Positions 17,601 through 37,993 of a DNA stretch of 64,000 bases are shown one piece after another (within the stretch, counting starts at the first letter, position 1; every line of letters starts with the position of its first letter). The notes under the pieces were generated by a model. The model saw only the letters and a program-made list of their open reading frames with translations, ran no database searches and was not told the origin of the DNA. Source of the stretch: Marsupella aquatica (taxonomy: Eukaryota; Plantae; Marchantiophyta). A program made the position numbers and the translations under genes. The stretch covers positions 372,001 to 436,000 of the forward strand of contig OZ316894.1 in NCBI GenBank assembly GCA_973895155.1, given 5' to 3'.

Positions 17601-19327
17601 ACCGAGGACCATTTCGTGGATGAGCATATCATCACTAGAAAGAACCGAAATGGTCCACTTGGTGGGTCTATTGGGCCGCAGACATCCACGTTTAGTTGTG
17701 AGAGGAAATCAGGTATGTGGTAGGTGTTTTTAGTGGTGGCAGGCATTGTAATCAATTTGCCTTGTGCACATGGGATGCATGTCTCATGTTTAGATGATGG
17801 ATGGACTCCTTGGGGAATGCCCGTGGTGTTCTTGAGGATTTTGTGGTACATTCCTGGGCCAGGGTGGCCAAGGCGGAAGTGCCATAGTTCTGTGGGTGAT
17901 AAGGGTTGGGCCTGTGAATGATAAGCTGTAATTTTGGTGGCGTATACTCCAGGGGGAAGAAGTGGTGAGGTCTCTAGTATGATTGGGCCAATATCAGTTT
18001 CCTGAAAGATCTGCAAAGCATCTACTTGGTGGTCAGGTGCAGAGCGAATGTGGAGGTTGTTTTGGCGAATATCGTGGAAGCTGAGTAGATTTCTGGTTGC
18101 AAATGGGGCGTAGATGGCAGATTGGATTTGAATAATTGTGCCATTTGGGAGGGTGAGTTCAGCGGGTCCGTGTCCTTCCTCTAATTGGTTTATACCTGTA
18201 ATGGTGGTCACAAGTCTATTGGATGGGGATATGTACTGAAAGTATTGTTTATCTTTTAATATTGTGTGAGAGGTGCCACTGTCAAGGATGCAGGTATAGG
18301 TGTCGGAGGGTGAGTTGGGGTTCTTTCCCTGTAATACCATGTGTATCTCTGGTGGGGGCGTTGCAAGTGTGTATTGTGAGAGGTCTTCATCAATCTCAAG
18401 ATGGTTTGCAGCTATGGCCGTGTTCGTGGTTTGTAGAGAGGCCTGGTATAGTTTGACCAGGTGGGATTGGGCTTTACAGTTCTTTCTGATATGACCAGGT
18501 CCGCCGCAACGGAAACACTTAGCCTGATTCTTTGTGGGTGTGATGTGTGCAGGTATGTTTTGAGTATAATTTGGCTTGCGTTGCCAAGGATTTGTGGTTG
18601 GCTGTGTGGTGCCGTTGTCCGTGCGTGCTTGGCGTCTCCAATTAAATATTTTGAAGCAGCCCGTATTTCTTCTAAGAGGGCCATTGTTGCCTTTGTAAGA
18701 GGGATTACCTCTGTTGGTACTCGTGAATTGGGTTTCAGTCCTGGGTAGCATACCTGGTGGTCTTTCTCGGGAGTTCTTAAGGAGAAGGAGATCGTTCTTC
18801 TCAGCCAGGAGCATAACTGCAATTAGATCAGAGAATTGGGTGAAGTGGCGTTGTCGGTAGATCTGTGACAATTGCATATTCGTTGCAGAGAATGTGGAGA
18901 GTGTTTTTTCGATCTTGGCTGCCTTGTTGATGGGTTCTCCACATGTTGCGAGTTGAGCAGTTATACGGAAGAGGGCACTGTTGTATTTTGCGATAGTTGG
19001 GTAATCTAGGACTCTTAGATGAATCCATTCGTTGCGAGCGGCTGGAAGGGAGATTAGGCAGAGGTGATCGAACCTCAATTTTAGAGCATCCCAGAGGGCT
19101 CTCGGGTTATACTCTGTGAGGTATTCAAGTTGTAAATCAGCGTCTAGGTGATGGCGGATAATGTACAGGGCCTGGGCCTTCTCTTGTAATGTTCCATAAT
19201 TGTCCCCCAATAAAATATCACCGAGGCCTTTCATGTTGAGAACAATTTCGGCATTCTGTGCCCAAGATAAGTAATTCTCGCCGTCTATTACGAGTGACGG
19301 GAATTGGAGCTTCTCCAAAGTTGTCAT
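14644..19327 (-). pseudogene. pol: copia gag-pol (gag, CCHC, protease ILDSGT, integrase, RT YVDD, RNase H) in four frameshifted ORFs
   Basis: ORFs 17558-19327, 16149-17627, 15368-16228 and 14644-15387. The last frameshift is a 16-bp tandem duplication TGCGCTTGTACATATC at 15375-15406. Confidence 0.93.
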
Positions 19328-19483
19328 TGTCAGGTTAATTGAAGTCTAGTAGCCCTGGGGAATTGGTCGTGGTCTGTGTAAATCAGGGTGCGGGCGGTAA
19401 AGAATTGTCGATGACAATTGGAAGTTATCAAAGAGAGAAAGAGGGAAAAAAACATAAGCTCGAGAAGATTGAAGGGCATAAAA

Positions 19484-19496: not shown

Positions 19497-21167
19497 TGTT
19501 AGACGATGGCTTTAATTCATACACCAACAACACAAGGATAATCTTTTCATGAGCCAATGTGGCTTATAAGGTGTTACACATTGGATGGTTATAACTACCT
19601 TCTCCTAGTCTCATGACTCTCTATATCTAGTCCCTATATACCCCTTTGTATCACTCTATGAGTTAGGGTTAAGTGTATTCTAACAGATTCACTAATAAAA
19701 AATTCTGGGACCAAGCCACGATTGATCTTTTGAAGCGCAGCTTTCTCTGTGACATCCAATGTCAGTGACCAATTCTCCAAATCTAAATACCAGGGACAAT
19801 GCAGCACCTCCCATTCACTTATCTTCCGCAAGGGTTCAATGTCCTCAATAGGGTACATCGAGTACTCCCCAAACTTCTCACAACTGGAATCATCTCTTGC
19901 ATATTGAGCCCATTGAGAGAAACATGCCGGGTAACACCACCAAAACGATCTATTTGCCACCTCACGATCCACAAAAAACCTATAAACATACCTTTTTGCC
20001 CTCCGACGGAAAGAAACAATGTCAATCTTTTCCCCAACTTTTGGGGTCCAAATGCTCTTGAAGAACCTTACCTTAACCCGCTGCAGGAAATCTTCTAATT
20101 CATCATCAATTTCAGCAAGGAGGGATGCCTGACTATTCTCCGGGGAAGAAAGAATTCTAGATTCAGGGACAGTGAGAATAATCTCAGATATTGCTTCACT
20201 TAGTAAGCACCTCGCAATGGACTCTACCTGTTCCCATGTTGCCCATCGATGCAACCAGAGCTTGGTCTCACTATCCGAAAATTGAGATGGATGAAAATAT
20301 TGTTTATGCAACTCTGGTCTGCACTGTGCTTCGAGAAGAGTGCAACGGAGTTGTGGACTCAAAGAAGTTACCCCGGTGAAAAGCCTTGCACAATCAAGGC
20401 CACATGAAACATTCCCTCTCCCCTTATCATCCGTCCGCTGAGCTTCCTTCCTTTCTTTCTCACAATAATTATGCATCTCAACACATTTCTTGAAGAAATC
20501 CCCAAAGTCTGGATTCAGGAGCGGGGCAAACTTTGGAACTTTGACATTCCAGTCGGAGAGTTGCTCCTTCATCATATCTTGAACTGCAATGTCTTTTGCA
20601 GCTTTCGACAGAGGTTCGCCCAATTCCTCCTTTAGTGCAAACTTCTTTAACAAGTCAGCAGTTTGCGAAGCTATATTTGCAGCAGAAAGAATATAAATGC
20701 ATGCATCTAAGGTCATATGCTTCGAATACCACGACGACTTCTTTACGTTTTGCGTCTTCTGCTGAAATAACTTGAAATTTTCTGGATCAATTAAATCCTT
20801 GTAAACTGAAAGGTCCGTGCTCAGGATCTTCTTGACCCGATCAACTTCCAACACCCATGAATTCTCGACATGGCATTGTGTCAACCTGACAATGAGTATA
20901 TATTTCAGCAATCGGCAAGAACAAATTGTGCCCAAAAATGAAGCAAAAAGATCAAATGTGTCCAGGCTCTTCTCACCGGTTGAGAGCATGCATCGCAGAT
21001 TCAATCTGCACGAAAGTATCCTTCTCTCCTTTGAAAATCTTCGAGACAACTCGAGGATGATACTTCACATCGTGAGGATTCTCAACAGCAAGTAGGTTCC
21101 ACGAATAGAGACGGTGATTGCCATCGAAGGGTATAACCACCGTGCTAGCAAATAGTAAATAGATATT

Positions 21168-21320
21168 CTCATACGAGCCAATTTTGCCTCGTACAAGCAA
21201 AATTTTGTCTCGTACGAGTAAATAAGTTCCTCGTATGAGCATATCTATTTACTCGTACGAGTTTCTGTTTTCTTGTATGAGTTTCTGTTTTCTTGTATGA
21301 GTATTTTTTTTTCTTGTATG
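21168..21320. repeat. left subterminal ~20-21 bp tandem array with palindromic core CTCGTACGAG
   Basis: About 8 units with cores such as ctcatacgag, ctcgtacaag, ctcgtacgag, ctcgtatgag and cttgtatgag. Confidence 0.85.
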
Positions 21321-21600
21321 CATTTTAGTTTCTTCTCTTCACGGTATGTAGCGTCCATATATGCAATAATTGTGCAGACAATATTATGGCGGGTCCCACC
21401 ATTGTACAACATCAGAGGAAATTTCTTGACGATTTCACACAAGGACTCCAATATATTGCCACGAAATATGAAGTCGAAACAAAGTCATACAATACTAGCG
21501 CCATTGTATTATACAAAAAAACAACACTTTAAGAACTCACACTTCTGCCCGTTAGAAAAGACAAACTACAATTGTAGCTATTCAACGATAAAGCAACAGT

Positions 21601-24600
21601 CTACGTTCTCGTTCCCAACTGCCTATCAAGTATGTAACGGACTTCTCCCAACGTTAGAATTGGCTGGCTACATAATGTCGAATCGAGCACATCCAGTTTG
21701 AACACATTCTTGAACACCCAATACACATGTTTGCAAGGCATGTAAGGCTTCCGATAAGTATGCCGACGGTAGAAATCCTTGCAAGAGCAACATGGGAAAC
21801 AACATATCTGAACCCAATAAGAGGCGACTGATCTCTCATGTTCATGGGTCCGGATACAAAACTGTTTCCCCGACGCATTTCCACTCGTGATCTCTCTCTG
21901 TCCAATGACGCTCATCACTTCTTTTTCAGAGGCTTCAATTCTCTTCAAATGTGTTTGGGTAAGATGCACTCTTTGCAAGCATTTCTTCCCGTTCCTTGAA
22001 GCGCATCTCACAAATGGGTCAGTTAGGTTGATCCTCTCCGGGAAAAGATTGACATCAATCCGTAACGCAGAAGGCAACGGTGCTTCGATTTCATCTCCAC
22101 GGCCTTCAGAGAGAATAAGTCCTTGTTCTTTCAAAAATTGAATCTCTGCTCCAGAAAGATTGGTCCCTCTGGCAATTGGGAGATGTGAAGGAACATTGGG
22201 AATGTTCGAGACTCCTCTCCTTGTTGTGCTTCGGTGACAGCGGTTGTTGGGGCAAAACCATATCTGATCGTTATAAGGTTGCCCCCTGAACATTCTGCAT
22301 CCTCTCACGGAAATTGCAACAACACCATCTGGATTCGGAAGGCCAACCTTCTTTACTCGATTTTGACATTCATCACGACTACCTCCCCGTCCAAGGGTTC
22401 TGTTACACACTGGACCCGCACCCCGTCTTGAGGTCCGATGCAACTGCCAGGCACCGGGAGGTACTTCACTTTCCATTGGGGAAACTGAATGACAATATGC
22501 AATCTCGACAGGTCTTGCAGGCGTCACTGGTGGGACAGAGGATCTCGTTGCTCGAGGCGTAGGTGTGTCAATGACCACAACTTCCTCAGAAGCATCGCTT
22601 TCTGACAAATTATGGACCGCATCAATTCCACCGACTGAAGGCGTAGAAGGCATTTTCTCAAAATCAGTGGAATGTAGGTTTCTCCTTTTCAAACCTTTTG
22701 TATTTGGTGAAGTAACAAGGATGGTATCATGCCTGTGCGAGTCTTCTGCCGAGACGTTCCCAGTTGCATGTCCTTTTCGTTTCACCATTCGAGTTACAAC
22801 ATCACCATTCAATGGAACGCTTCTTTCCAAATCAAACTCAACAGCGTTCGACAGGAGGAGATTGGTGGCTTCCTCAAAGAGACGCGGCGACCCCGCCAGG
22901 TCCGCCGATCAGAAGGCAAGCTCAAAAATAGTTGGGCCAATTCCTCTGCTCAATCCCCTTTTGTATGCAGTATAAGTAGCAATTTGAGCAACCGCTCTAT
23001 TTTGGTCCGTTTTGCATCCTTCAAACAGACCAACCTTTTTTTCTGTTGCCATGCTTTCATTCCAGCATGCCTAGATTCCGAACCAGTACAATTAGGAATC
23101 ATCCCAGCCTCTTCGGCACTCTTGCTCTGAAACATTGCACGCAAGGGTCTAGTACATGTAAGAAATTGCACACAAAAGTGGCAAATGGCAATAACAGTAG
23201 CGCCAGACGCTAATAAACTGATGATGATATTTCCATGTAAAGAACCATTTAACACAGAATAAAGGCAGTCCTTACATCACGCATAGTCCAAACGGATTAT
23301 TAGCGCTCGGCGCTACTATTGTGGAATAAGGAACTCTTCTATCTCACACATGGTTCACTAGCGCCGAGCGCTATTAATGGGAACATGCATCCTAGAGCAG
23401 TGTATAACTCACCAGTCTTATGAAGTTCCCCCATTGTCTCCATCGGACAACCCACCAAGACAGCCATCCTTGCAGCATCCGAAGTTTGCCTGAGTGACAA
23501 TTGCCAGACCTCCACCAGTCATCGATTTCCCTCGAGATTCGATATGCTTTCAAGAAAGTTGGCGCATTCCGAAGACGATCCCACATCTCCTTGTGTTCTC
23601 CGTGCTTTCCATCTTTTACACCTTCTCAAGAATGACGATGAAAAGATTGGAAAAAATGAAAGGCATCTGATCTTTCTCGCTCTGGGTCGGGTACATCGTC
23701 AAAGAACACGTTTCGAACAGCATTCCAACCAGCCTGAGCATTGTCCGCCATGAATCCCCGAATTGTAACATCTTGTAAACCATTTTCATCGGCAACCTCT
23801 AACATCAAACGCCAGGCTCTCTCTAGAGATTTTGCATCTTCGGCCTTTAGCTCACAAGTGAATATGGTGCAAAGTGCCCGGTAATGATGATCATATACAT
23901 GGGCACTGAAAGTAAGCCAAACTGCCGTGCTTCGATGCATGACGTCAAAACTTACCCATGAACCCTCTAACGACCCACCAGGTTTCATTCTTTGGAGCAG
24001 GTCTAGACCACTCCCGTCACCTTTTACGGTCATTTTAAAGATATGAGCACTCTCGTCCCAACAGCCTTGACCAGGGAGCAAGAACCTATGAAGAAAAGGC
24101 AGTTGGATACACTTTTGCATCCTCACAAGAAATTCCAGTTCCCCTTTCCCCTTCTGATCTTGACGGACACTCCTCAAGACGGATGCAAACTTCTGAGGAG
24201 ATGCGACGACCATCAGGGACTCCCAGATTTCCTTCTCTTCTTCAAGAGAGATTTCTTCAACAGAGGCCTCGCAAAATGTATTCGTCAGTGTCTCAGTCGC
24301 AGAGTTTTTAATCCCTGCTGGGGATGCCATGGGGTTTGCAGTGAATCCCTTCTCCAGATGAGACCTTGCAACCTTTTCTGCCTCCCTCAAAAAGACCCGT
24401 CGACTGGGATGATTGTGAAATCCCATATGAACAGCTAGTCGCGACATGTGGGCCAAAGACTTCACGTCAACTTTTGCAGATGGATACATGTAGAACATTA
24501 GAGCAGGGCAGGCCTCAACGCACATCGGAGGTTCGGAGCAATGGTGACAAACAACTCCACCTTCGGAGATCAATTCCCCAACTTGGAATGGGCCCGAAAG

Positions 24601-25412
24601 TTTTGGGGTTCTTGTCCACATCTCATTATTTCGAAACTTGTTGTCTTTCCACCACGGACAAGCATTATTTCGACACTACAGCGATCCCGTACACTGGACT
24701 TTCCCGAAATCCACATTTTTTTCGGAAGAACATTTGAAGACGTTTTCACAATCCGAGTCCAATAATAACAATCCTTACCACGATCCATATCTTTCAAACG
24801 TTCACCTTTTGCGTTCACACAGTCTATCGGGGGTAACTCAAAAACCACATTCCCATTGTAAGATGTGGGAAGACTAGGCACTACGTGATGAACAAAATCA
24901 CTCCCCCTTATAAACCGAGACAATTCACTATGACCTTTGGATTTCAAGATTGTATCCATTGCACTCTGCCGGTACACATTCAAAGGCCCAATCTTTTCTC
25001 GATCCACATTAGACTCCTTTTTAACCGCGGATGGGTAAAGTGGAATCTTCTCTCTGAGAGTAGTCGTTAGTTGCTTATCATCTCCAGAACTTTCTGAGAG
25101 TTCGATGACATTGAGTTCAGCCGCTGTGGGAGGACGAGTATAGGAGGCCCCAGAATCTCTCAAAACAAAAACCTCATATTCTTTCTGAGCCTCCAGAGCC
25201 CAATATCTTTGACCATGAACAACATCGTAGAAAACTGGAGTCTCCCCCAAACAAACCGACACTAACGAGATCGCTAAAATAGATTCCTTGGGGACATCAA
25301 ATCTCACTCCCAAATATTCCTCTGAAACACGCTTTGATTCAGATGATTCGAGGACGGGAATTGTGATTACATCCCGAGTGTCCTTCCTCGTGACAACGAT
25401 ATTTTGAGCCAT
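21601..25412 (-). pseudogene. MULE transposase (Cys/His DNA-binding region, DDE core, C-terminal SWIM finger), mildly disrupted
   Basis: Cys/His region CHHC..C..CPA..HMGFHNH; DDE-like residues SFDVMH, FMADNA, DAFH and ESRH; SWIM finger CSCKDF..PCKHVYW. GT-AG intron at about 23127-23412. One in-frame TGA at 23626-23628 and frameshifts near 24600 and 22960. Confidence 0.82.
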
Positions 25413-25587
25413 GGCCTCAAAAGAGGGACATGCATTTGCCCCGCGCGAAATGAAATATGTTTATCATGAGATTCGAGTACGAGAAGTAAACGTTCCATTC
25501 TCATTATAGAGTCGTTATAGATTTGGACGCACTCCATCAATGACGTTTTGTCATCTTACCAACGGCAGGATTCGGGTTCATAGTTAC

Positions 25588-25735
25588 TAGCGCCTGGCGC
25601 TACCTCTAAGTGTAAAACACTCTTGGATGAGGACTACGAATGCCAATAATAATAGCGCCTGGCGCTACCTCTGGGTGCAAACATTCTTGGGTGAGGAGTA
25701 CGAATGCCAATAATAATAGCGCCTGGCGCTACCTA
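25588..25735. repeat. ~64-65 bp tandem repeat (2.3 units), each unit carrying the palindrome, upstream of the transposase
   Basis: The unit TAGCGCCTGGCGCTACCTCT..TCTTGG.TGAGGA.TACGAATGCCAATAATAA is repeated. Confidence 0.9.
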
Positions 25736-28700
25736 TTTCAATGGACTTGAAAACATTCAATTGAAGGATCAGTACAATAACACGATATAGTACGTGTCAT
25801 TAAGTTGGCACGCTTGAAGATCTTCACTGGATCTTTGCGAATCCGATCCGCCCGGGTCCAAATGTGTCAGAGAGGAAGCGTCCATGAAAGTTATATCAGA
25901 GGGGCCTCTTCGAAGTGGGTACCCAGGACCAAGTGCGAACTCTCCTTATATCTAGTCGTTCCCCTCGGATGTCCTCATTGTCAAGCCATTCTTCACTGAG
26001 TCGCAGTTGTGGCTCATCTTTCGGGCGCGTGGTTCCCGTTCTCGCTTTCGGGTCCAGTTGTTCTTTTTGGCTTTCCTGCGCGTTCTTGTTCTCCTTCTCG
26101 TTGTCGTTTCTCATTCTCGTCCTAGTTCACGCTGTTGTCCTCCTTCACGTTCTCGTTCGCTCTTCTTGTTCTCGTCCTCGTCCTCACTTTCAATGGCACC
26201 TCCATGAGGGAAGGCAAAGGATGAGGCACTTGTCCCGAGCGACACCGACAGGGAGACCCCCGCATCAAATAGCTTACCGCCTCGGCCGAATGCCGAGAGG
26301 ACGACGGTTCCAATATCGAAGAAGGGGAAACTCATCTCAAAGACAAAGAATGTCCCAACTGTGGGTCGCAGCGAAGGATCCAATCGGCCAAAATAATGCG
26401 AGCGGCCCGACTTCTGTTCCCTCTAGGGATATCGCCATTGCTTCAGTCGGCCGTCCAAGAGCCGACACTATGTGCACGAGAGTCTCCGTATCTTCTTCAT
26501 CTACTGAGAGTGATCGTTCTTCGAGCGGGGACTCATCACCGAGCAGGCAAGGATTTGCGTGGTATGGATCGAGCGACTCGAATGACGACTCCGATGCGTA
26601 CAAGCCAAGTTGGTGGGAAGACTGATTTCCCGTTGTCAGGGCGTATCGTTTGAGTGTTGGAGAGACTTGGAGGATCCATCAAGGTTGATAGGATCTGTTT
26701 CCACTCGTTTTTACTTATAGAAAACCCATACCGTTCCTTCCTCGTATGCCGGATTTCTAGTGTAATGTAACATTTTGTATTCGAATGGCACAGCCGTTCG
26801 TTTTTACCTCGGTGTCATTGCTTTTGAATTCAGAAGACCAAGCTTTAATTTTCGGTTCTGCTCCCGTGTTTGCATTGTATTTCTGAATGCGAACTTGATC
26901 TATTTCTTTGAAATGGCCGTAAAGACTCGCTTGCTGTCAATGTTTTGACTAGCGTCGGGCGCTATTATGAGAAACAAAGTGTCCGTAACACTGTCGTGAC
27001 AAGTCTTATCTCTAAAGTGTTTTTGATAGCGTTGGTCGCTATTAATGAAAGGAATTACAAGTCAGGAGTTATTTTACTTTTATTTCAACAAATTCTGTTT
27101 AATTGATGTGAATGTTAATAGCGCCAGGCGCTATTGTAATTCATTGGAATATTCGTTGAATGAATGGGTTCATGTTGTCATGTTTGTTGTCATTGGACTC
27201 GGATTTCGTCATTTATTTGAATACTAGCGCCGAGCGCTAATAAAGTTGGTTTGTCTATACCTGCATAAAATTGGAAAATTTATAGACAATTGTGTTGATA
27301 TTACTGCCCGTAGCTACATTTGAAAGTATGTTGTATAATAGCGCCTGGCGCTATCCAGAACCACCGACACTGATGTGGTTCCAACGGTCACTTTCCAACG
27401 GTAATATTATAGTAGATTGAGGTTCACGGAACCCTTTTTGCTTTTGTCTGGGATGAAAGTCCAATCGGAGAATGCCATCTGTACTTGGGACCGTTGGAAT
27501 CGAATGGCTGGTTCTATTGTATCGGTGTTTAATACGAGGTGGAGATCCTTCGTTTGGGATAATTTAGTCCGTCTACGCGCTCAGACCTCGGACTATACGA
27601 GTTTGTCAAGTGCGTATGTGCGTCCTTTATTGGTCACGTACATTTTGAGACGTGATCGTCACAAGAACTGCACGGCGCGTACGACAGTGCCGGGTGGTCG
27701 AGTCGCTCTCCACGGCAACTTTTGGCTGGGTGATACGAGAATGGGGGAGGCTGATGGTGGTCATTCTGAGTCCTCTCAGTCTTCGTTCGCTGGTTCAGTA
27801 TACACCCATCGTGTCACTCGATCGACTGCGTCCCTATCGACTTTTGAAGCTGAATCTGCACAGCCCTTCCCGAGGTTAAGGAGAGGGAGAATGGACCCTA
27901 AGGAGGTCTCCATGGGTGAAGTCAATGACATAGGCTTATCGATGGACGAGGTAATATCAAAGCACGCGTTGTCGTTCGGGAAGGATTTTCGAGGAATCGA
28001 TAAGGAGCCACCTCGAATTCCTCTTTGTAGATTGCTCCCCATGGAGGTTGTTCGAACATTACAGAAAGAAAGTGCATCGATCGAGAAGTTGAAGGAATCA
28101 TTCCGTGTCACCGGGTACAACTCGCGCATTGGGATGCCTTTCTACGTTCAGCCTGTGAATGCCGACGGGGTTTCGCAGATATGCACCACCGAGATCCGGG
28201 ACTCTTGGGATCCAATCTGGGTCGCAGAGAATAACAAGTTTGAGGAAGAGTGTGATGCGGACCCAGCGTTCCATATTCTAAAAGATAAAATGTTTTGTGT
28301 GTTTGACGGAAATCATCGATTGTACTCGTGGTCAATCGTCACGAGGGAGAATCCGGACAACTTGAAGTATCATCCTCGTGTGATTTGCGTCATTTTCAAT
28401 GGTGACAGAGGTTCGCTAGTTGAGCTCGAGGCGTCAATGCACACCGTGAACCAGTAAGTTCTATTCGTTAACTGTTGTTACCCCTGTCATTCATTTTTGA
28501 CCAAACATGCTTTGCGAAAGTGTTCATTCCCCAATTTTTGCTAGCGCCCGGCGCTACTAATTCCTTTTCATTACATCCAGGCTTGGACAAGCAGTCGTCG
28601 AGCCTTCCTGGATTCTTGACGCGAACAAAATTTCCCAAATTCTGTCGCGTGATCTTGATCACTATAAGCCACTCATCGACAGCGCGAACATGGCAAAGTT

Positions 28701-29858
28701 TGAGGCGATCCGAAAGAAGATGAGAAAGGGTCTTGGTTTACACATAAAATGCCACAGGATGCTCTCATCTACATTCTGTGTGTGGACAAAATCAAGTCTT
28801 ACTCAAATCAATTTAAGTCTGATATGGCTTTAGCCAAAGCTCAAGGGACTCCTTGGTCAGAAGAGGAGACCACAAAGAGGCATGAGGCAATGATGAAGGA
28901 GGCGACCAAAGATTGGTCGATCAAAGTGACGAAGATCACCCCTTTACTTCATCCGGATTTTGGAGATTATTTGGGAACCTGTGCTGAGATGTATCCCGTA
29001 ACTGAGAAGAACAAACGGGAGAAGAAGCCAGACACAGTTGTATGCACAATGGATCGAGCCAGGTTGTTTACTGCTGTTTCATACCTGGATCCAAAATTGA
29101 GGTGCACCCTTCTAGTAGCCCACTGCACTCCCGAGATTCGGAAACAGTTTTTCCATCCTGCAAGTGTCAACGACGAGCCTGTGAAGTAGTGGTGCCATAC
29201 ATGGCATACTTGGAATTCTGTGGAGGGAATTGCAACTGGAATGCTTCACACTTCCTTCAAACAGATTTCTGACCGGATGCCGGCTGACCGTCTCACAAAG
29301 TCTGGGTGTGAGTCAATGGAGGCCGTGCTTAAGATCATTCTCGATGAATTCAGAAACTTTGGGGATCTTGTCAAGGCAAAATTCTTCAACAACTTGTGGT
29401 CTTCCAAATATGCGGACAAGGAAGATTACACAACGGAACCGGAAGAGAGCCAAACGATATCTATACCGGTTTTACATGTGGATGGAGCTTAGATCTCCTG
29501 ACACTCTGTGGGCATACCCGGCTGCATTTCAGAAATGGGTGTGGATATACAGTAAACTTGAAAAGCTAAGATTAAGTGCAAATTTTTAAATTTTCTGGTC
29601 GCTAAAGTTAGAGTTCACTTAAACTTACATTTTTTACGCCTTTTAGTAAGATACGATCTTACAATCTTACGATCTTACGAGTTACGAACTTACGCGGTAC
29701 TAGAAGATTACGCCGTTGCAAGACTAACAGGCGGAAAGTACACTATGAGCCGCATCGCGTGAAATCTTACGACCAGAGCGAATCACTCTCTGCATGACTA
29801 TTTCCGACGCTTACAAGCATCGCTCCGCTTCATCTGATCAACATCCACCTCAAGATTT

Positions 29859-31343
29859 GTGAACCCGAGAGCTATGGCAACATTCGATTGTGATGAGGAA
29901 TACCTCATTGATTCTGTGGCAATTCCAAAAGCGCTCGTCATCAGGCTCCCCAGGACCAAAGAGAGCTATGAATCATTACGCCAATCCTTGAGAGAGCTTG
30001 GACTGGAGAAATTATTACGACTACCATGGACTTCAGAGTTGGACACCTACCTGGAAGATTTTGTCAGAGGATCAATTGTCGCCTCACCTTCACCTACTTC
30101 TATTCGAGGACGGCCCAGCAAATGGACCATAGATCACTTCGCGTATGCTTTTGGATGTTCTGCTGACGGAGAAGCGCTACTTTCGCCCAAGGATGATACA
30201 TCAACTCCATACTTTTCAGGTACCCGGAATAAGAGAAATGGCTGGAATGTGAGTCAATGCAATCATTTGGAGCTAAGAATTCTTTTGGAATTTTTGGTTC
30301 CTATTTTTCATCCCAAGAAACCAACTGTTTGCTCCATTTCTCTGGCCAATACCATCATCGCTGCGCACAGTGGTAGAGTAAAGGTCAATTGGGCTTTGGT
30401 ATTTTTCAATGTTGTGAGGGATCAACTTCGGACATTAAGGGCGAATCAATCAACTCCACTGCAAAACTATCTAGCCCAGCTATACTCCGCTTTTGATTGC
30501 TCACTTCCTGAGGAGGTGATGGAGAGAGATTATCTTATGGAAGAAATCTCCAAGTTGTGGGAACAAGATGAAATTATGCCTACTACAGCAGAAGAGGCAA
30601 ACGTCATATCGCCAGCTTCTCCGGGCAGCCGGGCAAGTCTTCACAATTCAAGTCCTTCAGATGAGGTACCCATGGACCTAGAAGCACTTACTACAGATGC
30701 TGAGATGATAGACTACTCAAGGATCCCCTCACCACCCCCTTCCACAGGAATTGGGAAGTTTCCTATTCGACTTGCACAGGACGACTCCAATCAGACCCTG
30801 ATCAGTAAGGTGTGTGCTTTGCTCAACTGTGACTTTCATTCACTGTACGAGACCATTGAGCAATTGCGCCATGACGCAGTGACACAGGTTCCTCCTTCTG
30901 CACTTTCATCTCCGGATCATGAGAATTCGCCATCATCTTCACCTCCAGCAGAAATTCAGCTCTCCCCAGAGGAACTTTTTGCTGTTAAGACTAGGGCTCA
31001 AATCTCAGTTCCATCCCCTATGGACTTGAAGGAGACCTCACCTACAAATTCAGAGCCTCCTCCCTGCTCATCTGTAGAACATCACTCCTGCCTTAAGATT
31101 GTCCATGAGTTAACTACTATGTTAGGCTGCCGTTCAGAAGAAGTCACCTCCATAGTCGATGAATTTCTTGATAGACCTGAACCTTCACGCTCCCCACTGC
31201 CATCCTCTCAGTTTCCCTATAGTCCTGATTCAAATTATGAGCCTACTGATAGTCTACCTCATAAATCTTTGCACCCCACACAACACTTCTCTCAGCAAGG
31301 ATTTCCCTTTTCTGAAGATTCTGATCCTCCATCCACACCCTAA
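29859..31343 (+). CDS. 494-aa ORF within LTR C; N-terminal region resembles gypsy accessory (Athila ORF/plant-mobile-domain-like) proteins
   Basis: GLEKLLRLPW..LEDFV..SIRG..WTIDHFAYAFG..RNGW..EFL..NWA aligns by eye with the family A (FEHLASLPW..EFV..LRG..LT..IFGLP..NGF) and family B (GLEAFVRLPW..EFV..YG..LT..VFGLP..KNGF) ORFs. Confidence 0.75.
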   Translation: MNPRAMATFDCDEEYLIDSVAIPKALVIRLPRTKESYESLRQSLRELGLEKLLRLPWTSELDTYLEDFVRGSIVASPSPTSIRGRPSKWTIDHFAYAFGCSADGEALLSPKDDTSTPYFSGTRNKRNGWNVSQCNHLELRILLEFLVPIFHPKKPTVCSISLANTIIAAHSGRVKVNWALVFFNVVRDQLRTLRANQSTPLQNYLAQLYSAFDCSLPEEVMERDYLMEEISKLWEQDEIMPTTAEEANVISPASPGSRASLHNSSPSDEVPMDLEALTTDAEMIDYSRIPSPPPSTGIGKFPIRLAQDDSNQTLISKVCALLNCDFHSLYETIEQLRHDAVTQVPPSALSSPDHENSPSSSPPAEIQLSPEELFAVKTRAQISVPSPMDLKETSPTNSEPPPCSSVEHHSCLKIVHELTTMLGCRSEEVTSIVDEFLDRPEPSRSPLPSSQFPYSPDSNYEPTDSLPHKSLHPTQHFSQQGFPFSEDSDPPSTP

Positions 31344-31368
31344 ACCCTAAACCCTAAACCCTAAACCC
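31338..31368 (+). repeat. (CCCTAAA)4 plant telomere-type repeat
   Basis: Four exact units; they supply the TAA stop of the 494-aa ORF. Confidence 0.9.
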
Positions 31369-31619
31369 TTCACTTCTCTCCCTATGATATTCCAGTCTGT
31401 GACTCACCAGATCAGGGATTCGAAGGAGTTAATGCAGCCTTGCGATCCAACCCCAACCTTGTTGCAGTTGTCACTTCTTCTACCCAGACTCCTAGAAACG
31501 CTATCATCTATAAAATGGAGCCTAGAACACCAGAGCAACAAGTCCAGAAGTATGTCACCACTTGTAAGGTTATGCATGCCAATACACCGCCTATAAGTGA
31601 GTTCTAGAGGTTTTATTAT

Positions 31620-32312
31620 TTGAAGAAAGCAGAGGCTAGCTACATTTTTGATCTCAGGATGATTGGTACCTCTCGCGTGGAGTTGGCTCAGTTTGATGAG
31701 TACTGGACAGATTCAGTCTACTTCCGACCTATACTGGCCGTTATGTTTCTACAAGGTGATGTTGAAGTTGATGACCCGGATTTAATCTTGGCCTATTTGG
31801 GAAATATAGCCGCTTATGCTTTAGATTTCTTACTGATTTTTCTAAAACAGAGCAACAAGTCTACTACCCCTGATCACTCATATATTCCCACTGGACCCAA
31901 GGTTATCCTTACTTCAACCACTTCTTATGAAGACAAGCAGCGAGTATGGAACAACATCAGCACGCAGCAGCTAACAAACTACACTCGCTACTTCCGGGAT
32001 GTGCAGTGGAAATTACGATCCTCCTACAACAAGATGCTGAGTACAGAGATGTTCTTACAATTCTACCCATCTGTCTACGCCAACTCGTGCAATTGTTTAG
32101 ATGTCATAGGCATCTTACGGGAAGCAATCAGAATCAACCAGTGCTTTTTGGAGAAAAGGATGCCACTTATGTATTGGGGAAGACAGATGAGATGTCTACC
32201 TTACATCCGGGATCAACCTCACTGTGATGAAGTAAGGGAAGCTATCCGGACGCGCACTATTTGGAAAGTAGAAATTAGAGAACCAGAGGATATTCGACAA
32301 CCAAAAGATTGA
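31620..32312 (+). CDS. 230-aa ORF or downstream exon within LTR C, function unknown
   Basis: Open frame with globular-looking composition. A possible intron GTGAGT(31598)..CTCAG(31657) precedes it. Confidence 0.55.
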   Translation: MKKAEASYIFDLRMIGTSRVELAQFDEYWTDSVYFRPILAVMFLQGDVEVDDPDLILAYLGNIAAYALDFLLIFLKQSNKSTTPDHSYIPTGPKVILTSTTSYEDKQRVWNNISTQQLTNYTRYFRDVQWKLRSSYNKMLSTEMFLQFYPSVYANSCNCLDVIGILREAIRINQCFLEKRMPLMYWGRQMRCLPYIRDQPHCDEVREAIRTRTIWKVEIREPEDIRQPKD

Positions 32313-35300
32313 AGCAGACCTGCAATTTTGTTAAGTGTCAGAGGCAGTTTCAGTTACTGTACCCCGCTCGATTTTATTAGACATGTTTTAAGATTCCAAA
32401 ACTCATCAAGTCTTTTTCAGTAGACAGCTTATACATAGGAAAACACATTGGCAAAGTCTCAATCACTTTGGATTGTAGTTAGAAAGTTAGAAATACTTTA
32501 GTTTGCTGAGTTTTCTATATCGTTAAGTTCCCGCGACTACGACTTTACGATCTTACGATCTTATGATCTTACGAACCTACGCTTTTACGAATTACGATCT
32601 TACGATACTACGGTAAACTTAACTTAGTTAGTTTTAGACCTTTTCATACTTAGTTTTCATTTTTGACTTCTTGAGGGTTTTGAAGGGTCATGACTCTTCA
32701 ACCCCCAAGGGTTTTTCCTCGATGTTTTTCACTATAAGTACCTTCCACTTCTAATAAGCAGCAGTAAGTAAGTCAGACATGACTTGTCGCCCCTTGGTGT
32801 TGTCCTTGTGATTTTGGACTTTTTGAATTCAGAGCAGGCATCCTAGGAGGGACTTACCTCCTTCTTGTATTTTGGAACCCAAATACTTGAAGTAAAACCT
32901 CAGTTATGAATCTCGTGAATTATAATGTCAGATTCCGCTTTGGTGACACATTGTAATCTCACAAGTTCTTAGAGTTAACCCATTGAGTTTAAGTTGCATT
33001 GGAAATGATGTTTTCACCTTCATGTTGCTTAGTACCATCTAAATGCTGAAGTATTTATCCTTTTAGATCTTGACTAAGTATCACTTAGGAAGAAAGGTCA
33101 AGACATGTTGCCGGCATTTTAAAAGGATACTCTAGTATGCAGTTTAGATCTGAAAAGCCGTGTGGATTTGAATTCCCTTAAAGTCATTCCATTATTGCTT
33201 ATGTCTAAGGAGTAACCTTGGTATATTCCAAACTCCCTTAAGCATACTCTAAGAGATTTTTCCTTGTGTTTTGTTAATTGCAACCTTTTGCTTAATTGAT
33301 GGTTATATGATGTTGAGTTATCATCAAAAACTGCTCACCGCTGTGGAGCGATCTTCAAAGTACCTAATTAAAGTAGTCAAGATTGATTACTATGTGTGAC
33401 ACAACAGCTTAAAGCTTTATTTTTAGTTTATTACATCAAACCAACCCAATCTTGTTCTTAACGGGAACGAATACCGAGTTTAGATACGTAAAAGAGTTCT
33501 TTTGGTTCTCTATAGCAAACTACAATGGGTGTCTATCGAAGAGGGAGACGCTCTTGCCAACCTTTATTCGATGTACCCAACGGAGGGAAAGTTTCCACCA
33601 CGTTCATTGTCGGAGTGGGAGAGACTTCACTGTCCCTGGTACCTGGACATAGACAAATGGGATTTACCGTTCGACGAAGCTGAGAAGGATGCCTTCATGA
33701 AGTTGCAGAAGTCCCAGATCCCTGCCAACTATGTGTCTGCAATGAAGCAAGGTCTCCAGTCTGATGTTGACGAATCTGCATCTGAGTTACAAAAGAATTG
33801 TGAGTCTCTTGTCATGCACGTTGACCGAAGCCATAAGCCAAGAGCAAAGGCGAAGAATGAGTCAGCTCACCAAGTGACTCCACAAGGTCCTTCAAGAAAA
33901 GTGAGTAGTCTAAGCGCTTTTTGGTTACTTGTTGGCGCTGCTTATGCAGGAGTTTCATTAGGAAATTCCTTTGATTAATAGCGCCTGGCGCTAGTCTGAA
34001 AGGTTGGACTCATTCAAGTTTCTGTGCCTAATAGGAGGTTGAAAGTCCGACACGGAGGTCCCGGCTGCCGAAGGGAAGAATGATGCAACTCCTCAGGCAT
34101 CGGAGGCAAACACTGGAGCTCAAGAAACCCCGGATCAAGGGACCCCGGATGGTGCTGGAAAATCCATTGTCCCTCTTGACGCAACTAGCACGAAGAAAAA
34201 GAAAAAGAGAGGCGCCGGTGAGGATAGAGCAGCATCATCTACTCGAGACGTTATTTCCTGTGGACTCCAGAGAGATGTCGGGAATTTTAAGTGAAGGTGT
34301 TCTAGACACTGTTTTGTGGAGTCCAATTTAAACAAATTTTACGATTCGGTATTTAACAAGGGGATTAAGCCCATGTGGGTTACTAAAGTTGAGGCCTGGG
34401 GAAAGGAATTGGTAAAGTCAGGAGACAGAGAGAAGGGAGTAATGCATGGCGGAAAAGAGAGGGGCTTTGGTGTGGATGCTGGTTTCATCTATATTCCCAC
34501 TGGATTAAAACCAACACTTCTTGATCGGAAGGTTCCCAAGTGGAACCTTCAGGATTACACTATTCCCAGCTCTTTCTTCCAAGCCATGGAGCCATTCCTT
34601 GCAGACGATGGCCTACTTGCAATTTTACACAGAGGAGACTATGATCAGGTATCTGAAGTGATTGCGGCTTGCCAGGATTCTAAGTGTTTCCAGTGTATTT
34701 CAACCCACCATGTGGTCATGACTACACCAATGTATAGGCCCCGATCTGATACTCAAGTAACAATTCCTCTTGCACATACTAGCGCCCGACGCTACTATCA
34801 GCATTCGCAATATCTACAATTCACTTATCTTTTGTAAGGATGAATGGTTTACTAGCGCCAAGCGCTAATATATGTGTCTGTTTTCTTATACTGCCTTCAT
34901 TGTGAAACTGTGTTGCAGATATTCACACTTACTCTTAATATATTTTGCCGCATTTCGACAAAGGGAAGGGTCCCAAAAGACCCCAAGTTCCGGCCACTAT
35001 CGAATGAAGAAGACCCTTCTGTCACTAACATTATTGGGTTTTCGTTGCCGCGACATGACCCGACTCCTGAGCTCCAATTTGCAGGAAATTCACGCTTGCC
35101 TGTGGGTTTCATGCAAACTATTTTGGAATTGGTGACTCTTCCTGGAGATATCGTTATGGACTGGACAGTAGGTTCCGGTAGTACGTTTGTGGCTGGAGAT
35201 TATTCTGGTCGCTTTGTTGTTGGGCTGGAAAATCGGCCAGAGTTTGTAGATACTTCCGGTAAGGTCTTCCTTGATCTTGATCTCCTAAGAAGATTCCTGG

Positions 35301-36207
35301 AAGTAAGAAGCAGGACAGGCTCCGTGCTATTCTAAATTTTGATTCGGAAGACGAGGATGAGGGTGGCAATGCTTCTCAGCAATCTAAAGATGATGAGGTG
35401 TCGAAGAATGTGGTGGACCTTGGATCTGGAGATGAGGACAGTGAAGAGTCAGAAGAGTAATTTTCTTTAGCTTCTTTCTCTCATTGTATACTTTTTTCCA
35501 AAGAACTCCTCTACTCCCTTTTGTCTAGAAAATTCGCCCGATTTCCCGACTTCGACTAAAGAACTCCAGTTCAAATTCTCAGGTCAGAGTGGAATCTTCG
35601 GAGGCGTTTTCAACTTCGAAGGAACGTCTCTAGGAACGTTGTACAGACCCCGGAGAAGCCATTTGTTCTCCCCTCTTATGCTGAAAAGGCGGCACGATGG
35701 GCAGATTCAGTCAGGACGCTTACTTGGGAGAGTAAGGGTCTTAGACTCAGGAGAGGCTCAGATAGAAAGTTTGTGCATAATCACTTCGTAGATGATATTG
35801 CAAAATCCAAGTATGTGGACGACGAAGCAGAGTCCACTGATAGATCAGAAAGTAGCGGCTCTGAATCGGGCTCAGAGTCGAGTGGTGGTTGTGGATCTGG
35901 TCTTTAGTTCTCCTTGTTTTATTTACCCGTTTATGGAGAACGACGACACTCAATAAGAACGCCGTGACGTGTCGGATTAGAGTAGCGCCCGACGCTATTA
36001 CTGTAGCCGGTAGTTCAAAGAGGTTTTTATTTTGTTTTTTTCCTTATAGCGCCCGGCGCTAGTATAAATGTACTCAATGGCCGCTTCACGTCCAATATAT
36101 GTGACAATATTTTCATACCCTTCGGTGTCTTTTTTTGGGTGCACATTTGCTGGTATGAGTTTTGCTGTTTGCTGTTTGCTGTCACGGAGAGATCCCCCGC
36201 CATTGAA

Positions 36208-36756
36208 TACACTAAACATCTTATCCTTGAGCACAGCAAAATCAGGATGCGAATCACACTCCCTCTCAAAAGCTTCATTCTGCGCCAACCACATTGGATC
36301 CCAGCTCTGTCTGATTGTGTCATTCAGAAACTGCACGTCCCCATTCTCATTTGTCATTTGCACATAGAAACGAGGCGCGTCCTCAATGTACCCTTGAGCT
36401 CGGAACTCGCTCTTAAGAGTCTCTATCGCATTCGAATCTGTCTGCAGAGACCTTACGAGCTGCATGTTCCGCATTCGACATAGTGGAATTCTTGGGGGAA
36501 CAAGAGGATACCCAAATTCATCTAGCCCAAACTGGTAAAGGTGACGGTTAATTACAACTGAGAAAGGCTCGGACTTGGTAGAAGCCATCAAAGGTGGTAC
36601 AATATCCATTGGATCAACAAGCTTTCGCCTCCTTGGAGTCTTCAGCCCCGAAGCAAGTGCTTTGTGGCTTGTAGAACTTCTGGTCTCCCGACGTTGAGAG
36701 GCAGCTGATTGTGAGGCAACGGATGAAATAGACTCAGGAGATGCAAAAGTTGCCAT
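36208..36756 (-). pseudogene. 5' part (ParB-like domain) of the outer element's ParB-MTase-like gene
   Basis: MATFASPES..PPRIPLCRMRNMQLVRSLQ..IETLKSEFRAQGY..LKDKMFSVF matches exon 1 of the gene at 27741 and stops exactly at the TSD. Confidence 0.88.
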
Positions 36757-37356: not shown

Positions 37357-37993
37357 GCCAGCGACATCGCTGGCCAAATCACTGTAAACCCTAAACCCTT
37401 AATATGATGTTTGTCCATTTAAAATGAGCTCTTAATGCTTTCTGAAAATCTTGAATACTCTACAGAATCTTTGAAACTGTTAACCCCCTCTACTAAAAGC
37501 TCTCGGTTTAACTACTATGTTATGACATTTAGGAAATATATTAGGTTCTGGATTCCTGAATTGACCCCCAAACTGAAATAAAAGTATATGCAAATTTCTG
37601 CGGCTTCAGGCTAGCGGTATCGCTGGCCTTATTGAAGTTTTATGAATGGTTTAATTACGGGACATCTCAGATTCCTCTCTTCTGTTTATATCATGTTGTT
37701 GGTGAACATGATGTTTTCAAATATCAAAAATATAGATCTTAAACACTGAAAACTTACCTGAATTATGTCTAGCGAGGTCGCTAGCAAAACTATTTTTAAA
37801 CACAAAGCTCCAAGTTCATTTAGCGTCCTAGTACACCCCAACTATACCCCAAGTTCAGGAAATGTGCTAGTATATCCCTCACCATACTTCTTGTCAAAAT
37901 AAAATAGGCCATTTAATTAAAGAGTAAACACTAAAATTCTGGTTCATAAGCACCTCATTATTCGAGAAAATTTAGGCTAGCGATATCGCTGGC
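37357..37993. repeat. palindrome family AGCGA-N2-TCGCT of the outer element
   Basis: GCCAGCGACATCGCTGGC (37357), GGCTAGCGGTATCGCTGGCC (37609), CTAGCGAGGTCGCTAG (37769) and GCTAGCGATATCGCTGGC (37976). Also CAGCGAGATCGCTG at 13162 and a degenerate copy at 11903. Confidence 0.85.

Follow-up and report, generated by a model that had tools for sequence, protein, structure and literature searches.

A Mutator-like element nested in an older relative in Marsupella aquatica carries its own palindrome and a decayed gene for a ParB/sulfiredoxin-fold protein that may read it

Can a DNA transposon of a land plant encode a protein that recognizes the transposon's own DNA? The question is raised by a stretch of 64,000 nucleotides from Marsupella aquatica (contig OZ316894.1, positions 372,001 to 436,000 of the forward strand), called the window below, which together with protein databases formed the basis of our analysis; all coordinates are window positions. 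The window holds a 15,070-bp DNA transposon at 21129-36198 (the inner element), which carries a putative transposase gene, an accessory gene whose product would have a ParB-like N terminus and a methylase-like C terminus, and 17 copies of one palindrome. It has jumped into an older, diverged element (the outer element) that has a paralogous accessory gene and a palindrome of its own. We give roughly even odds (a probability of about 0.5) to the reading that the 17 palindromes are loading sites for the protein with the ParB/sulfiredoxin (ParB/Srx) fold, supplied by intact copies, which would in this way recognize its own element. A first-pass annotation, made from the letters of the sequence, had proposed a self-recognition module of this kind. 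What stands of that proposal is the ParB/Srx fold and the element-exclusive palindrome, to which a paralog-specific spacer can be added, but the methylation mark has become doubtful in view of motif IV, and the copy at hand is decayed.

The inner element is bounded by a target site duplication (TSD) of 9 bp, within the 8- to 11-bp range of the Mutator superfamily, and by terminal inverted repeats (TIRs). The duplication reported by the first-pass annotation is present but imperfect: GCCATCGAA and GCCATTGAA agree at 8/9 positions, the single mismatch being a C>T change at a CpG, and the two flanks rejoin as a single reading frame of the outer gene. The TIR match (left end against the reverse-complemented right end) was not reached by any of 200,000 pairs taken at random from 15000-42000. 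The features that define the element and its putative transposase gene, which consists of open reading frame (ORF) blocks, are as follows.

21120-21128: left TSD copy, GCCATCGAA; on its minus strand are the FDG codons of the outer gene that the insertion interrupts
21129-21182, plus strand: left TIR, imperfect, with 36/54 in-register identity to the right end
Inside the left TIR and on to about 21330: subterminal repeats CTCGTAYGAG / CTTGTATGAG
21601-25460, minus strand: putative Mutator-type DDE transposase gene, three ORF blocks (25460-24570, 24675-23626, 22908-21601)
36145-36198, minus strand: right TIR
36199-36207: right TSD copy, GCCATTGAA

Given the 9-bp duplication, the TIRs, and a lead from the ESM Atlas, "Mutator-like" is the best label for this transposon. 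All 10 of the best family-bearing ESM Atlas look-alikes of the central transposase block carry the Mutator-like element (MULE) family PF10551, with a top score of 0.93, which is a language-model lead only. The ORF 21601-22908 also contains a SWIM-like CxC-x15-CxH string (CSCKDF...PCKH), spotted by eye and without a Pfam SWIM match. The MULE transposase of the first-pass annotation is based on the look-alikes, the TSD, the TIRs, and the SWIM-like string; none of the three ORF blocks matches a Pfam or NCBIfam family, and no profile shows transposase homology. The subterminal repeats (CTCGTAYGAG / TTTTCTTGTATGAGTTT), which run from 21154 to 21331 with a spacing of about 20 bp and recur once near the right end (36146-36162), are distinct from the GC-rich palindrome and are candidate transposase-binding repeats.

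How closely is the palindrome tied to the inner element? Allowing at most one mismatch, TAGCGCNNNGCGCTA matches 16 times in the window, always between 23198 and 36061, against 0.05 matches expected; one further copy, at 27027, departs from it at 2 positions and brings the total to 17. Searching the 64 kb for the core AGCG-N5-CGCT also gives 17 copies, all of them within the inner element, which bears out the earlier claim that the palindrome is exclusive to it. Likewise, 17/17 copies avoid the 13 coding-like blocks of the element (8,679 of 15,070 nt) and hence fall in its 42% non-coding share (0.424^17, about 5e-7). They are distributed as follows.

23198-23373: three palindromes (23198, 23301, 23359) in a probable intron that separates transposase ORF blocks
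25588-27353: eight palindromes (25588, 25653, 25717, 26950, 27027, 27119, 27225, 27339) in the divergent intergenic region
28542-28556: one palindrome in intron 1 of the accessory gene
33979-34867: three palindromes (33979, 34780, 34853) in introns before and inside the methylase-like domain
35983-36061: two palindromes (35983, 36047) between the accessory stop codon and the right end

The transposase intron thus has 3 copies, the intergenic region 8, three accessory introns 4, and the 3' end 2. The copies at 25588, 25653, and 25717 sit in a tandem repeat of 64 to 65 bp; apart from this triplet, the palindromes have mutually unrelated flanks and are therefore not copies of one longer repeat. 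Neither the TIRs nor the left 2 kb of the element contain a palindrome, which argues against binding sites for the transposase at the element ends.

This distribution bears on another account, in which the palindromes would be cis sites for the transposase, of an internal enhancer type, or for a host transcription factor of the divergent genes, with the accessory protein acting elsewhere. It would suit such an account that 8/17 palindromes occupy the divergent promoter region at 25588-27353, that MULE transposases have DNA-binding domains of their own, and that the full-length family profile, searched against the PDB, revealed no DNA-binding domain in the accessory protein. The remaining 9/17, however, lie in probable introns and at the 3' end, and the empty TIRs and left 2 kb fit it poorly. 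Moreover, a site for a host factor would not be expected to be missing from the remaining 49 kb of the window or to change its spacer between paralogous elements, as the palindrome does (see below). We therefore consider this account rather unlikely.

A further indication that the palindrome is specific to an element family comes from the outer element. The inner element has inserted within an older paralog of its own accessory gene, which is read from the minus strand, and the insertion site coincides with the codons of the FDG(NHR) motif of that gene. Outer and inner accessory genes are collinear over their full length, with about 40 to 55% amino acid identity (local tblastx). The inner element thus jumped into another, diverged element of its own kind, with the same gene layout. 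Its parts, and the palindromes associated with them, are given here.

36199-36750, minus strand: N-terminal piece of the outer paralog, which stops (...KDKMFSVFNG) at the insertion point
19634-21128, minus strand: outer paralog from FDGNHRLYSW... through the middle region
About 14644-19345, minus strand: copia-type retrotransposon (gag_pre-integrs, rve, RVT_2), which interrupts the outer paralog between the middle region and the methylase-like domain
12153-13687, minus strand: methylase-like domain and tail of the outer paralog, with a frameshift near GFMQ/GFME
37358-37992: four outer palindromes, YAGCG-N4-CGCTRG (37358, 37611, 37769, 37977; cores 37360-37979), upstream of the outer gene
13161-13176: outer-type palindrome (core 13163) in an intron within the outer methylase-like domain
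11903-11918: sixth, degenerate copy of the outer type with 2 mismatches, located 3' of the outer gene

The core AGCG-N4-CGCT occurs five times in the window, and all five copies lie in non-coding DNA of the outer element; versions of the AGCG/CGCT core with N3 or N6 spacers occur 0 times in the 64 kb. The intron with the copy at 13161 is the same one that holds the palindromes at 34780 and 34853 in the inner gene. Each of the two paralogous genes is thus accompanied by a palindrome of its own, related to the other but distinct from it and equivalent in position, as would be expected if the site were specific to an element family. The pattern is most simply explained by such a cis site being read by a protein that the element itself encodes. 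A terminus of the outer element at about 11743 was also considered, but with only 25/54 identities to the inner end it is not claimed.

Which protein might read such a site? By analogy to the pairing of parS with ParB, and to Noc and KorB, the product of the accessory gene is the obvious candidate. As the first-pass annotation had described, this is a spliced gene that diverges from the transposase (27741-35907, plus strand, against transposase ORFs at 21601-25460, minus strand). Its coding length, estimated from the exon spans, is about 1,050 codons, and full-length relatives have 1,191 to 1,244 amino acids.

27741-35907, plus strand: accessory gene, divergent from the transposase, with a ParB/Srx-fold domain, a long middle region, an amino-methyltransferase-like domain, and a conserved acidic tail
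27978-28457, plus strand: domain of predicted ParB/Srx fold with the (D/E)GNHR motif, assigned from an AlphaFold2 model and structure comparisons
29552-33514, plus strand: 3.96-kb GT..AG interval with two ORFs, 29838-31343 (501 amino acids) and 31608-32312 (234 amino acids), and no palindrome
34304-34759 and 34916-35236, plus strand: methyltransferase-like domain in two exons, with GFIYIPTGL at the motif IV position and DIVMDWTVGSGST as motif I

Exon 1 of the inner gene contains FDGNHR, and the family alignment shows this region to be highly conserved (G in 111/118, N in 116/118, H in 108/118, and R in 97/117 sequences). An AlphaFold2 model of residues 80-238, based on a 122-row alignment, reached a mean predicted local distance difference test (pLDDT) of 94.3 and a predicted template modeling score (pTM) of 0.88. 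An unbiased fold search with this model among 48,161 PDB representatives returned 19 chains at Z>=2, the top 12 of which belong to the ParB/Srx superfamily (Z 7.3-2.6; KorB 7.3, PadC 6.5, Srx 6.5, SerK 6.2, Atu1540 5.7), the first unrelated row having a Z of 2.5. The top rows of a Foldseek search against the PDB were Noc, sulfiredoxin, ParB-CDP/CTPgS, KorB, PadC, pNOB8 ParB, SbnI, and a serine kinase. Among the chains picked by Foldseek, VIA-align gave Z>=5 in 45/98, with a top Z of 8.3 for Noc 7ol9_B (root mean square deviation [rmsd], 3.0) and Caulobacter ParB 7bm8_A (rmsd, 2.7) over 98 aligned residues. A viral structure library pointed to these families as well, and its rows include a phage "DNA methylase" (rank 33) and a marseillevirus DndB-like protein. 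In the model, a strand (106-110) is followed by a helix (112-124), which would fit a GxxR-type phosphate-binding motif at the strand-to-helix turn. The ParB-type N terminus of the first-pass annotation is thereby supported, and on the predicted structure we regard the ParB/Srx fold as established. PHROGs gave a hint in the same direction, phrog_1033 "ParB-like partition protein," at an E of 0.1 only. Rows for galectin-8 and WUSCHEL in the sequence and profile searches of the PDB with the N terminus were at chance level and were rejected.

The same comparisons touch on a further possibility, namely, that the accessory protein is an enzyme for transposition or DNA processing, such as a ParB/Srx-type NTPase or nuclease related to DndB, GmrSD, or Osa, with the palindromes being structural or regulatory. 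DndB (the DGQHR family) is indeed the most recurrent Pfam family among the family members (6/122; best E, 0.028), chains of SspE, BrxU, a DndB-containing protein, and Osa appear in the fold list, and the (D/E)GNHR motif presumably resembles the DGQHR-type motifs of DndB/GmrSD/Osa-type families. Yet the best structural matches are the CTP-binding clamps ParB, Noc, and KorB, with Z scores of 7.3-8.3, compared to 2.2-3.0 for SspE, BrxU, DndB, and Osa, and a role as a processing enzyme appears improbable to us.

A different relationship is hinted at by the ESM Atlas, in which the look-alike clusters of the N terminus are fungal and 31 to 47% of their members carry DUF3723 (PF12520, a Starship accessory gene). 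The DUF3723 Pfam model matches 0/122 family members and no ORF of the window, and our literature search found no paper that pairs DUF3723 with ParB.

The C terminus raises the question of whether the protein could also mark the DNA. Exon 34856-35335 matches Pfam N6_N4_Mtase (PF01555) with an E of 3.4e-8 and 34.2 bits (cut-off, 26.7), at profile positions 163-219 of 221, and NCBIfam and PHROGs agree with the methylase likeness of this exon. The PDB matches are DpnA, M.PvuII, CcrM, M.MboIIA, and M.RsrI, all of them via the FxGxG/motif I region only; the upstream exon, in which motif IV is expected, matches nothing in the PDB or Pfam. At the position of motif IV, which lies about 190 to 220 residues before motif I and whose assignment is based on this spacing and not on a model, the inner gene reads GFIYIPTGL, the outer gene GFIALPTGL, and the proteins of the liverwort Riccia YLDLPTGL or FLDMPSGL. 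The consensus is therefore (D/Y/A)(L/I/M)P(T/S)G and not (D/S/N)PP(Y/F/W), with both window copies also lacking the Asp. The beta-class methylase C terminus of the first-pass annotation thus holds for the motif I region (PF01555 and the PDB matches), but the catalytic motif IV is not DPPY or SPPY. This makes standard N6-methyladenine (6mA) or N4-methylcytosine (4mC) activity of the family doubtful as judged from its motifs, and more so for the window copies without the Asp. We consider a standard writer of 6mA or 4mC less likely for the methylase-like domain than a module that binds S-adenosylmethionine (SAM) or DNA, or an enzyme of a non-canonical type.

Several results weigh against the reading of the palindromes as loading sites for a self-recognizing, DNA-marking protein. 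With respect to the fold, the structure and profile comparisons gave the ParB/Srx fold and the PF01555 match, but Pfam ParBc and ParB_N matched 0/122 family members at E<=1. Foldseek gave 0 matches in the PDB at E<=0.001, and none of the 48,161 chains of the unbiased search reached Z>=8, the range obtained being rated middling by the tool. Sequence and profile searches of the PDB with the N terminus returned no ParB, and the full-length family profile had 0 PDB matches and identified no helix-turn-helix (HTH) or other DNA-binding domain. With respect to the genes, motif IV is non-canonical in 12/12 aligned sequences that cover it (2 window copies and 10 from Riccia, some of the latter being fragments of nearly identical copies). 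An in-frame stop at 29187-29189, within a block that aligns to the outer copy, and two frameshifts, near 28725-28735 and 29430-29445, make the inner gene a pseudogene that can yield no protein. The outer gene is broken by two insertions (the inner element and the copia element) and by a frameshift in the motif I exon. As judged from their reading frames, neither window copy makes the protein; the inner copy, being dead, could only be a target of protein supplied in trans. In addition, the 64-kb window contains no transposase of the outer element and no second transposase copy, so that the linkage of gene and transposase is seen once only. Finally, four related metagenome contigs of 1.2 to 1.8 kb, retrieved with a 14-row alignment as the query, showed no recurrent palindrome, being too short to judge; a metagenome scan with a single-protein query gave no match.

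Is the accessory gene nevertheless a regular component of mobile elements? Searching 1.84 billion representatives with exon 1 (238 codons) yielded 224 relatives at E<=1e-3, 81 of them at E<=1e-10, and many are first-exon fragments; the best matches are only 50% identical. Of the 150 relatives listed, 76 have DGNHR and 19 have EGNHR. Named family members belong to a liverwort, Riccia sorocarpa, and to two ferns, Adiantum capillus-veneris and A. nelumboides. Full-length homologs were also found (P0154 and P0161), and word-index protein searches with the middle region and the N terminus found no relatives of greater length. With a full-length Riccia sorocarpa member (1,207 amino acids) as the query, 24/24 matches were Riccia proteins on contigs with at least 8 distinct lengths, a spread that fits a multicopy, mobile gene. 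The accessory gene is thus a multicopy family with named liverwort and fern members.

This has a bearing on the idea that the gene was passively captured from the host, in the style of Pack-MULEs, and has no role in the element, with the palindromes being an unrelated, expanding microsatellite-like motif. MULEs do capture host gene fragments, and the inner copy is decayed. Against this, the whole gene is kept by two diverged elements in the same place, adjoining one end, the Riccia proteins just mentioned are dispersed over several contigs, and the flanks of the palindromes are mutually unrelated. Comparable accessory genes are, moreover, described for Sola1, Plavaka, Mutator, and Zisupton elements of algae in the main texts cited below. 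Passive capture is therefore highly improbable.

Some features of the gene and its relatives deserve mention in their own right. After the methylase-like domain, both window copies (35587-35907 and 12153-12539) and the Riccia proteins have a conserved C-terminal tail, LPxYAExxA followed by an acidic stretch of the fvDDeA type. In P0129 of Adiantum capillus-veneris, the ParB/Srx-like N terminus and the middle region are joined to a C-terminal NIF/FCP1 phosphatase domain instead of a methylase-like one, which may be a gene-model fusion. The 3.96-kb interval at 29552-33514 is missing from the outer paralog and is flanked by direct arrays of the 8-mer TACGATCT (29644-29702 and 32538-32612); it is probably a later insertion and possibly an unclassified nested element that is spliced out as an intron. 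Neither of its two ORFs has a Pfam or NCBIfam family, and it holds a short CCCTAAA run at 31336-31372.

How, then, might the palindromes function? If they are loading sites for the ParB/Srx-fold protein, the protein made by intact copies would bind them as a dimer, by analogy to ParB on parS, through a putative DNA-binding part that our analysis did not locate. With sites across the promoter, the introns, and the 3' end, binding could lead to occupancy of the whole element. The outcome might be self-marking or shielding from host silencing, with a logic comparable to that of VANC in VANDAL elements. A bolder and more tentative version, which we think possible but would not favor as a whole, is that Mutator-like elements of land plants carry a eukaryotic counterpart of parS-ParB. 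A lineage-specific palindrome (N5 versus N4) would coevolve with its own ParB/Srx protein, and the methylase-like domain, without the canonical catalytic tetrapeptide, would act as a reader or a non-canonical modifier. The element could then distinguish its own copies from those of its relatives and evade or direct host silencing, and the N-terminal domain would perhaps be the same as the Starship DUF3723.

The surroundings are eukaryotic and rich in transposons. Besides the copia-type retrotransposon, the window holds the following elements.

5-5.8 kb: zf-RVT fragment
9.8-11.5 kb: gypsy-type reverse transcriptase, RNase H, and integrase
60.9-63.8 kb: retrotransposon gag

A repeat that codes for long, coiled-coil-rich proteins is present in several copies on both strands (2.4-4.5, 38.6-42.4, 47.1-49.8, 50.6-55.8, and 56.2-59.9 kb). 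Pfam searches with 3 of its ORFs gave only 2 subthreshold matches at chance level, and the repeat resembles an abundant, unclassified element family around the inner element.

To our knowledge, transposon-borne accessory proteins with ParB-like or DNA-modifying domains have been mentioned only in passing for brown, red, and green algae, their binding targets being a matter of proposal so far. The window offers a natural comparison, with two nested, diverged elements of one family that have spacers of 5 versus 4 and palindromes at matching non-coding positions. Since each has its own palindrome, the proposition that the protein recognizes its own element becomes a simple swap experiment. Furthermore, the family now reaches genomes with a liverwort and ferns as their named relatives, and a methylase-like domain without the canonical catalytic motif is relevant to the question of whether 6mA or 4mC is written by such elements at all.

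The first-pass annotation knew of no description of this combination of features, a claim that does not stand in view of two direct algal precedents. In the main text of a study of Ectocarpus (PMC12477816, Genome Biol 2025;26:320), the 21.5-kb transposon Sola1-1_Ec32 is described to encode a 1104-amino-acid protein with ParB-like and DNA methyltransferase domains on the strand opposite the transposase, for which self-binding and self-modification are proposed. For red-algal Plavaka (EnSpm/CACTA) elements, the main text of a preprint (bioRxiv 10.1101/2025.02.11.637652, cited elsewhere as Curr Biol 2025) describes PAG3, a ParB-like (HHpred E, 0.29) protein with a 2-oxoglutarate (2OG) oxygenase domain and with tandem inverted-repeat arrays alongside, and PAG2, which combines PF01555 with SET in the same elements. 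It reports PAG genes also in Mutator, Zisupton, and Fanzor elements of Chondrus crispus, and states for them the idea that the protein binds and modifies its own transposon. The inner element shows the layout of this algal type, a ParB-like N terminus plus a methylase domain in a DNA transposon, beside the transposase. It thus belongs to a known, recently noticed kind, whose function is known by proposal only.

The likeness to the Ectocarpus and red-algal proteins is one of layout and description. The Sola1 element is alike, as far as its main text describes it, in being a giant DNA transposon with a ParB-like and methylase protein encoded opposite the transposase; it differs in belonging to the Sola1 superfamily and to a brown alga, whereas the present element is Mutator-like with named relatives in a liverwort and ferns. 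The main text also contains neither "palindrom" nor an internal inverted-repeat site, and motif IV is non-canonical here. PAG2 and PAG3 share with the present system, by the same preprint text, a transposon-borne ParB-like N-terminal domain, inverted repeats, and PF01555 in the same elements. They are, however, two proteins, whereas here a single protein is ParB-like and PF01555-like and Pfam and NCBIfam scans found no SET or 2OG domain in it. The repeats differ too, being tandem arrays beside the gene for PAG3 and single palindromes across all non-coding parts here. In the main-text passages of these algal precedents, there is no mention of land-plant hosts, paralog-specific spacers, or an altered motif IV.

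Fusions of ParB-like and methylase domains have been described more widely, as in the ParB-HTH-fused Dam-type methylases of chlorophytes and chytrids discussed in the text of Iyer et al. 2015 (PMC4738411), and the phage "DNA methylase" with a ParB/Srx fold in our viral list is reminiscent of phage ParB-methylase fusions. With Marchantia MpDN4MT1a/b and bdelloid N4CMT, which are N4-cytosine methylases derived from bacteria, the accessory protein shares beta-class amino-methyltransferase ancestry in a eukaryote. Identity with the 4mC methylase of the Marchantia DN4MT1 type was nonetheless rejected, given that MpDN4MT1 keeps TSPPY where the present family has (D/Y/A)(L/I/M)P(T/S)G, and that the main text of its preprint does not contain "ParB."

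In Arabidopsis, the anti-silencing VANC proteins of VANDAL (Mutator) elements recognize short motifs that are specific to the family and lie in non-coding parts of the element. They resemble the present case in that a Mutator-superfamily element has an accessory protein, and they differ in protein architecture; the analogy is one of logic only, homology not having been sought. The CTP-dependent bacterial DNA clamps ParB, Noc, and KorB differ in that Pfam ParBc matches none of the 122 members and no HTH was identified, and in that the gene is here a spliced eukaryotic one in a transposon. They are alike in the predicted fold of the N-terminal domain (Z 7.3-8.3 over about 95 to 98 residues), in a GxxR-type motif after a beta-strand, and in the presence of several palindromic sites on the very replicon or element that carries the gene.

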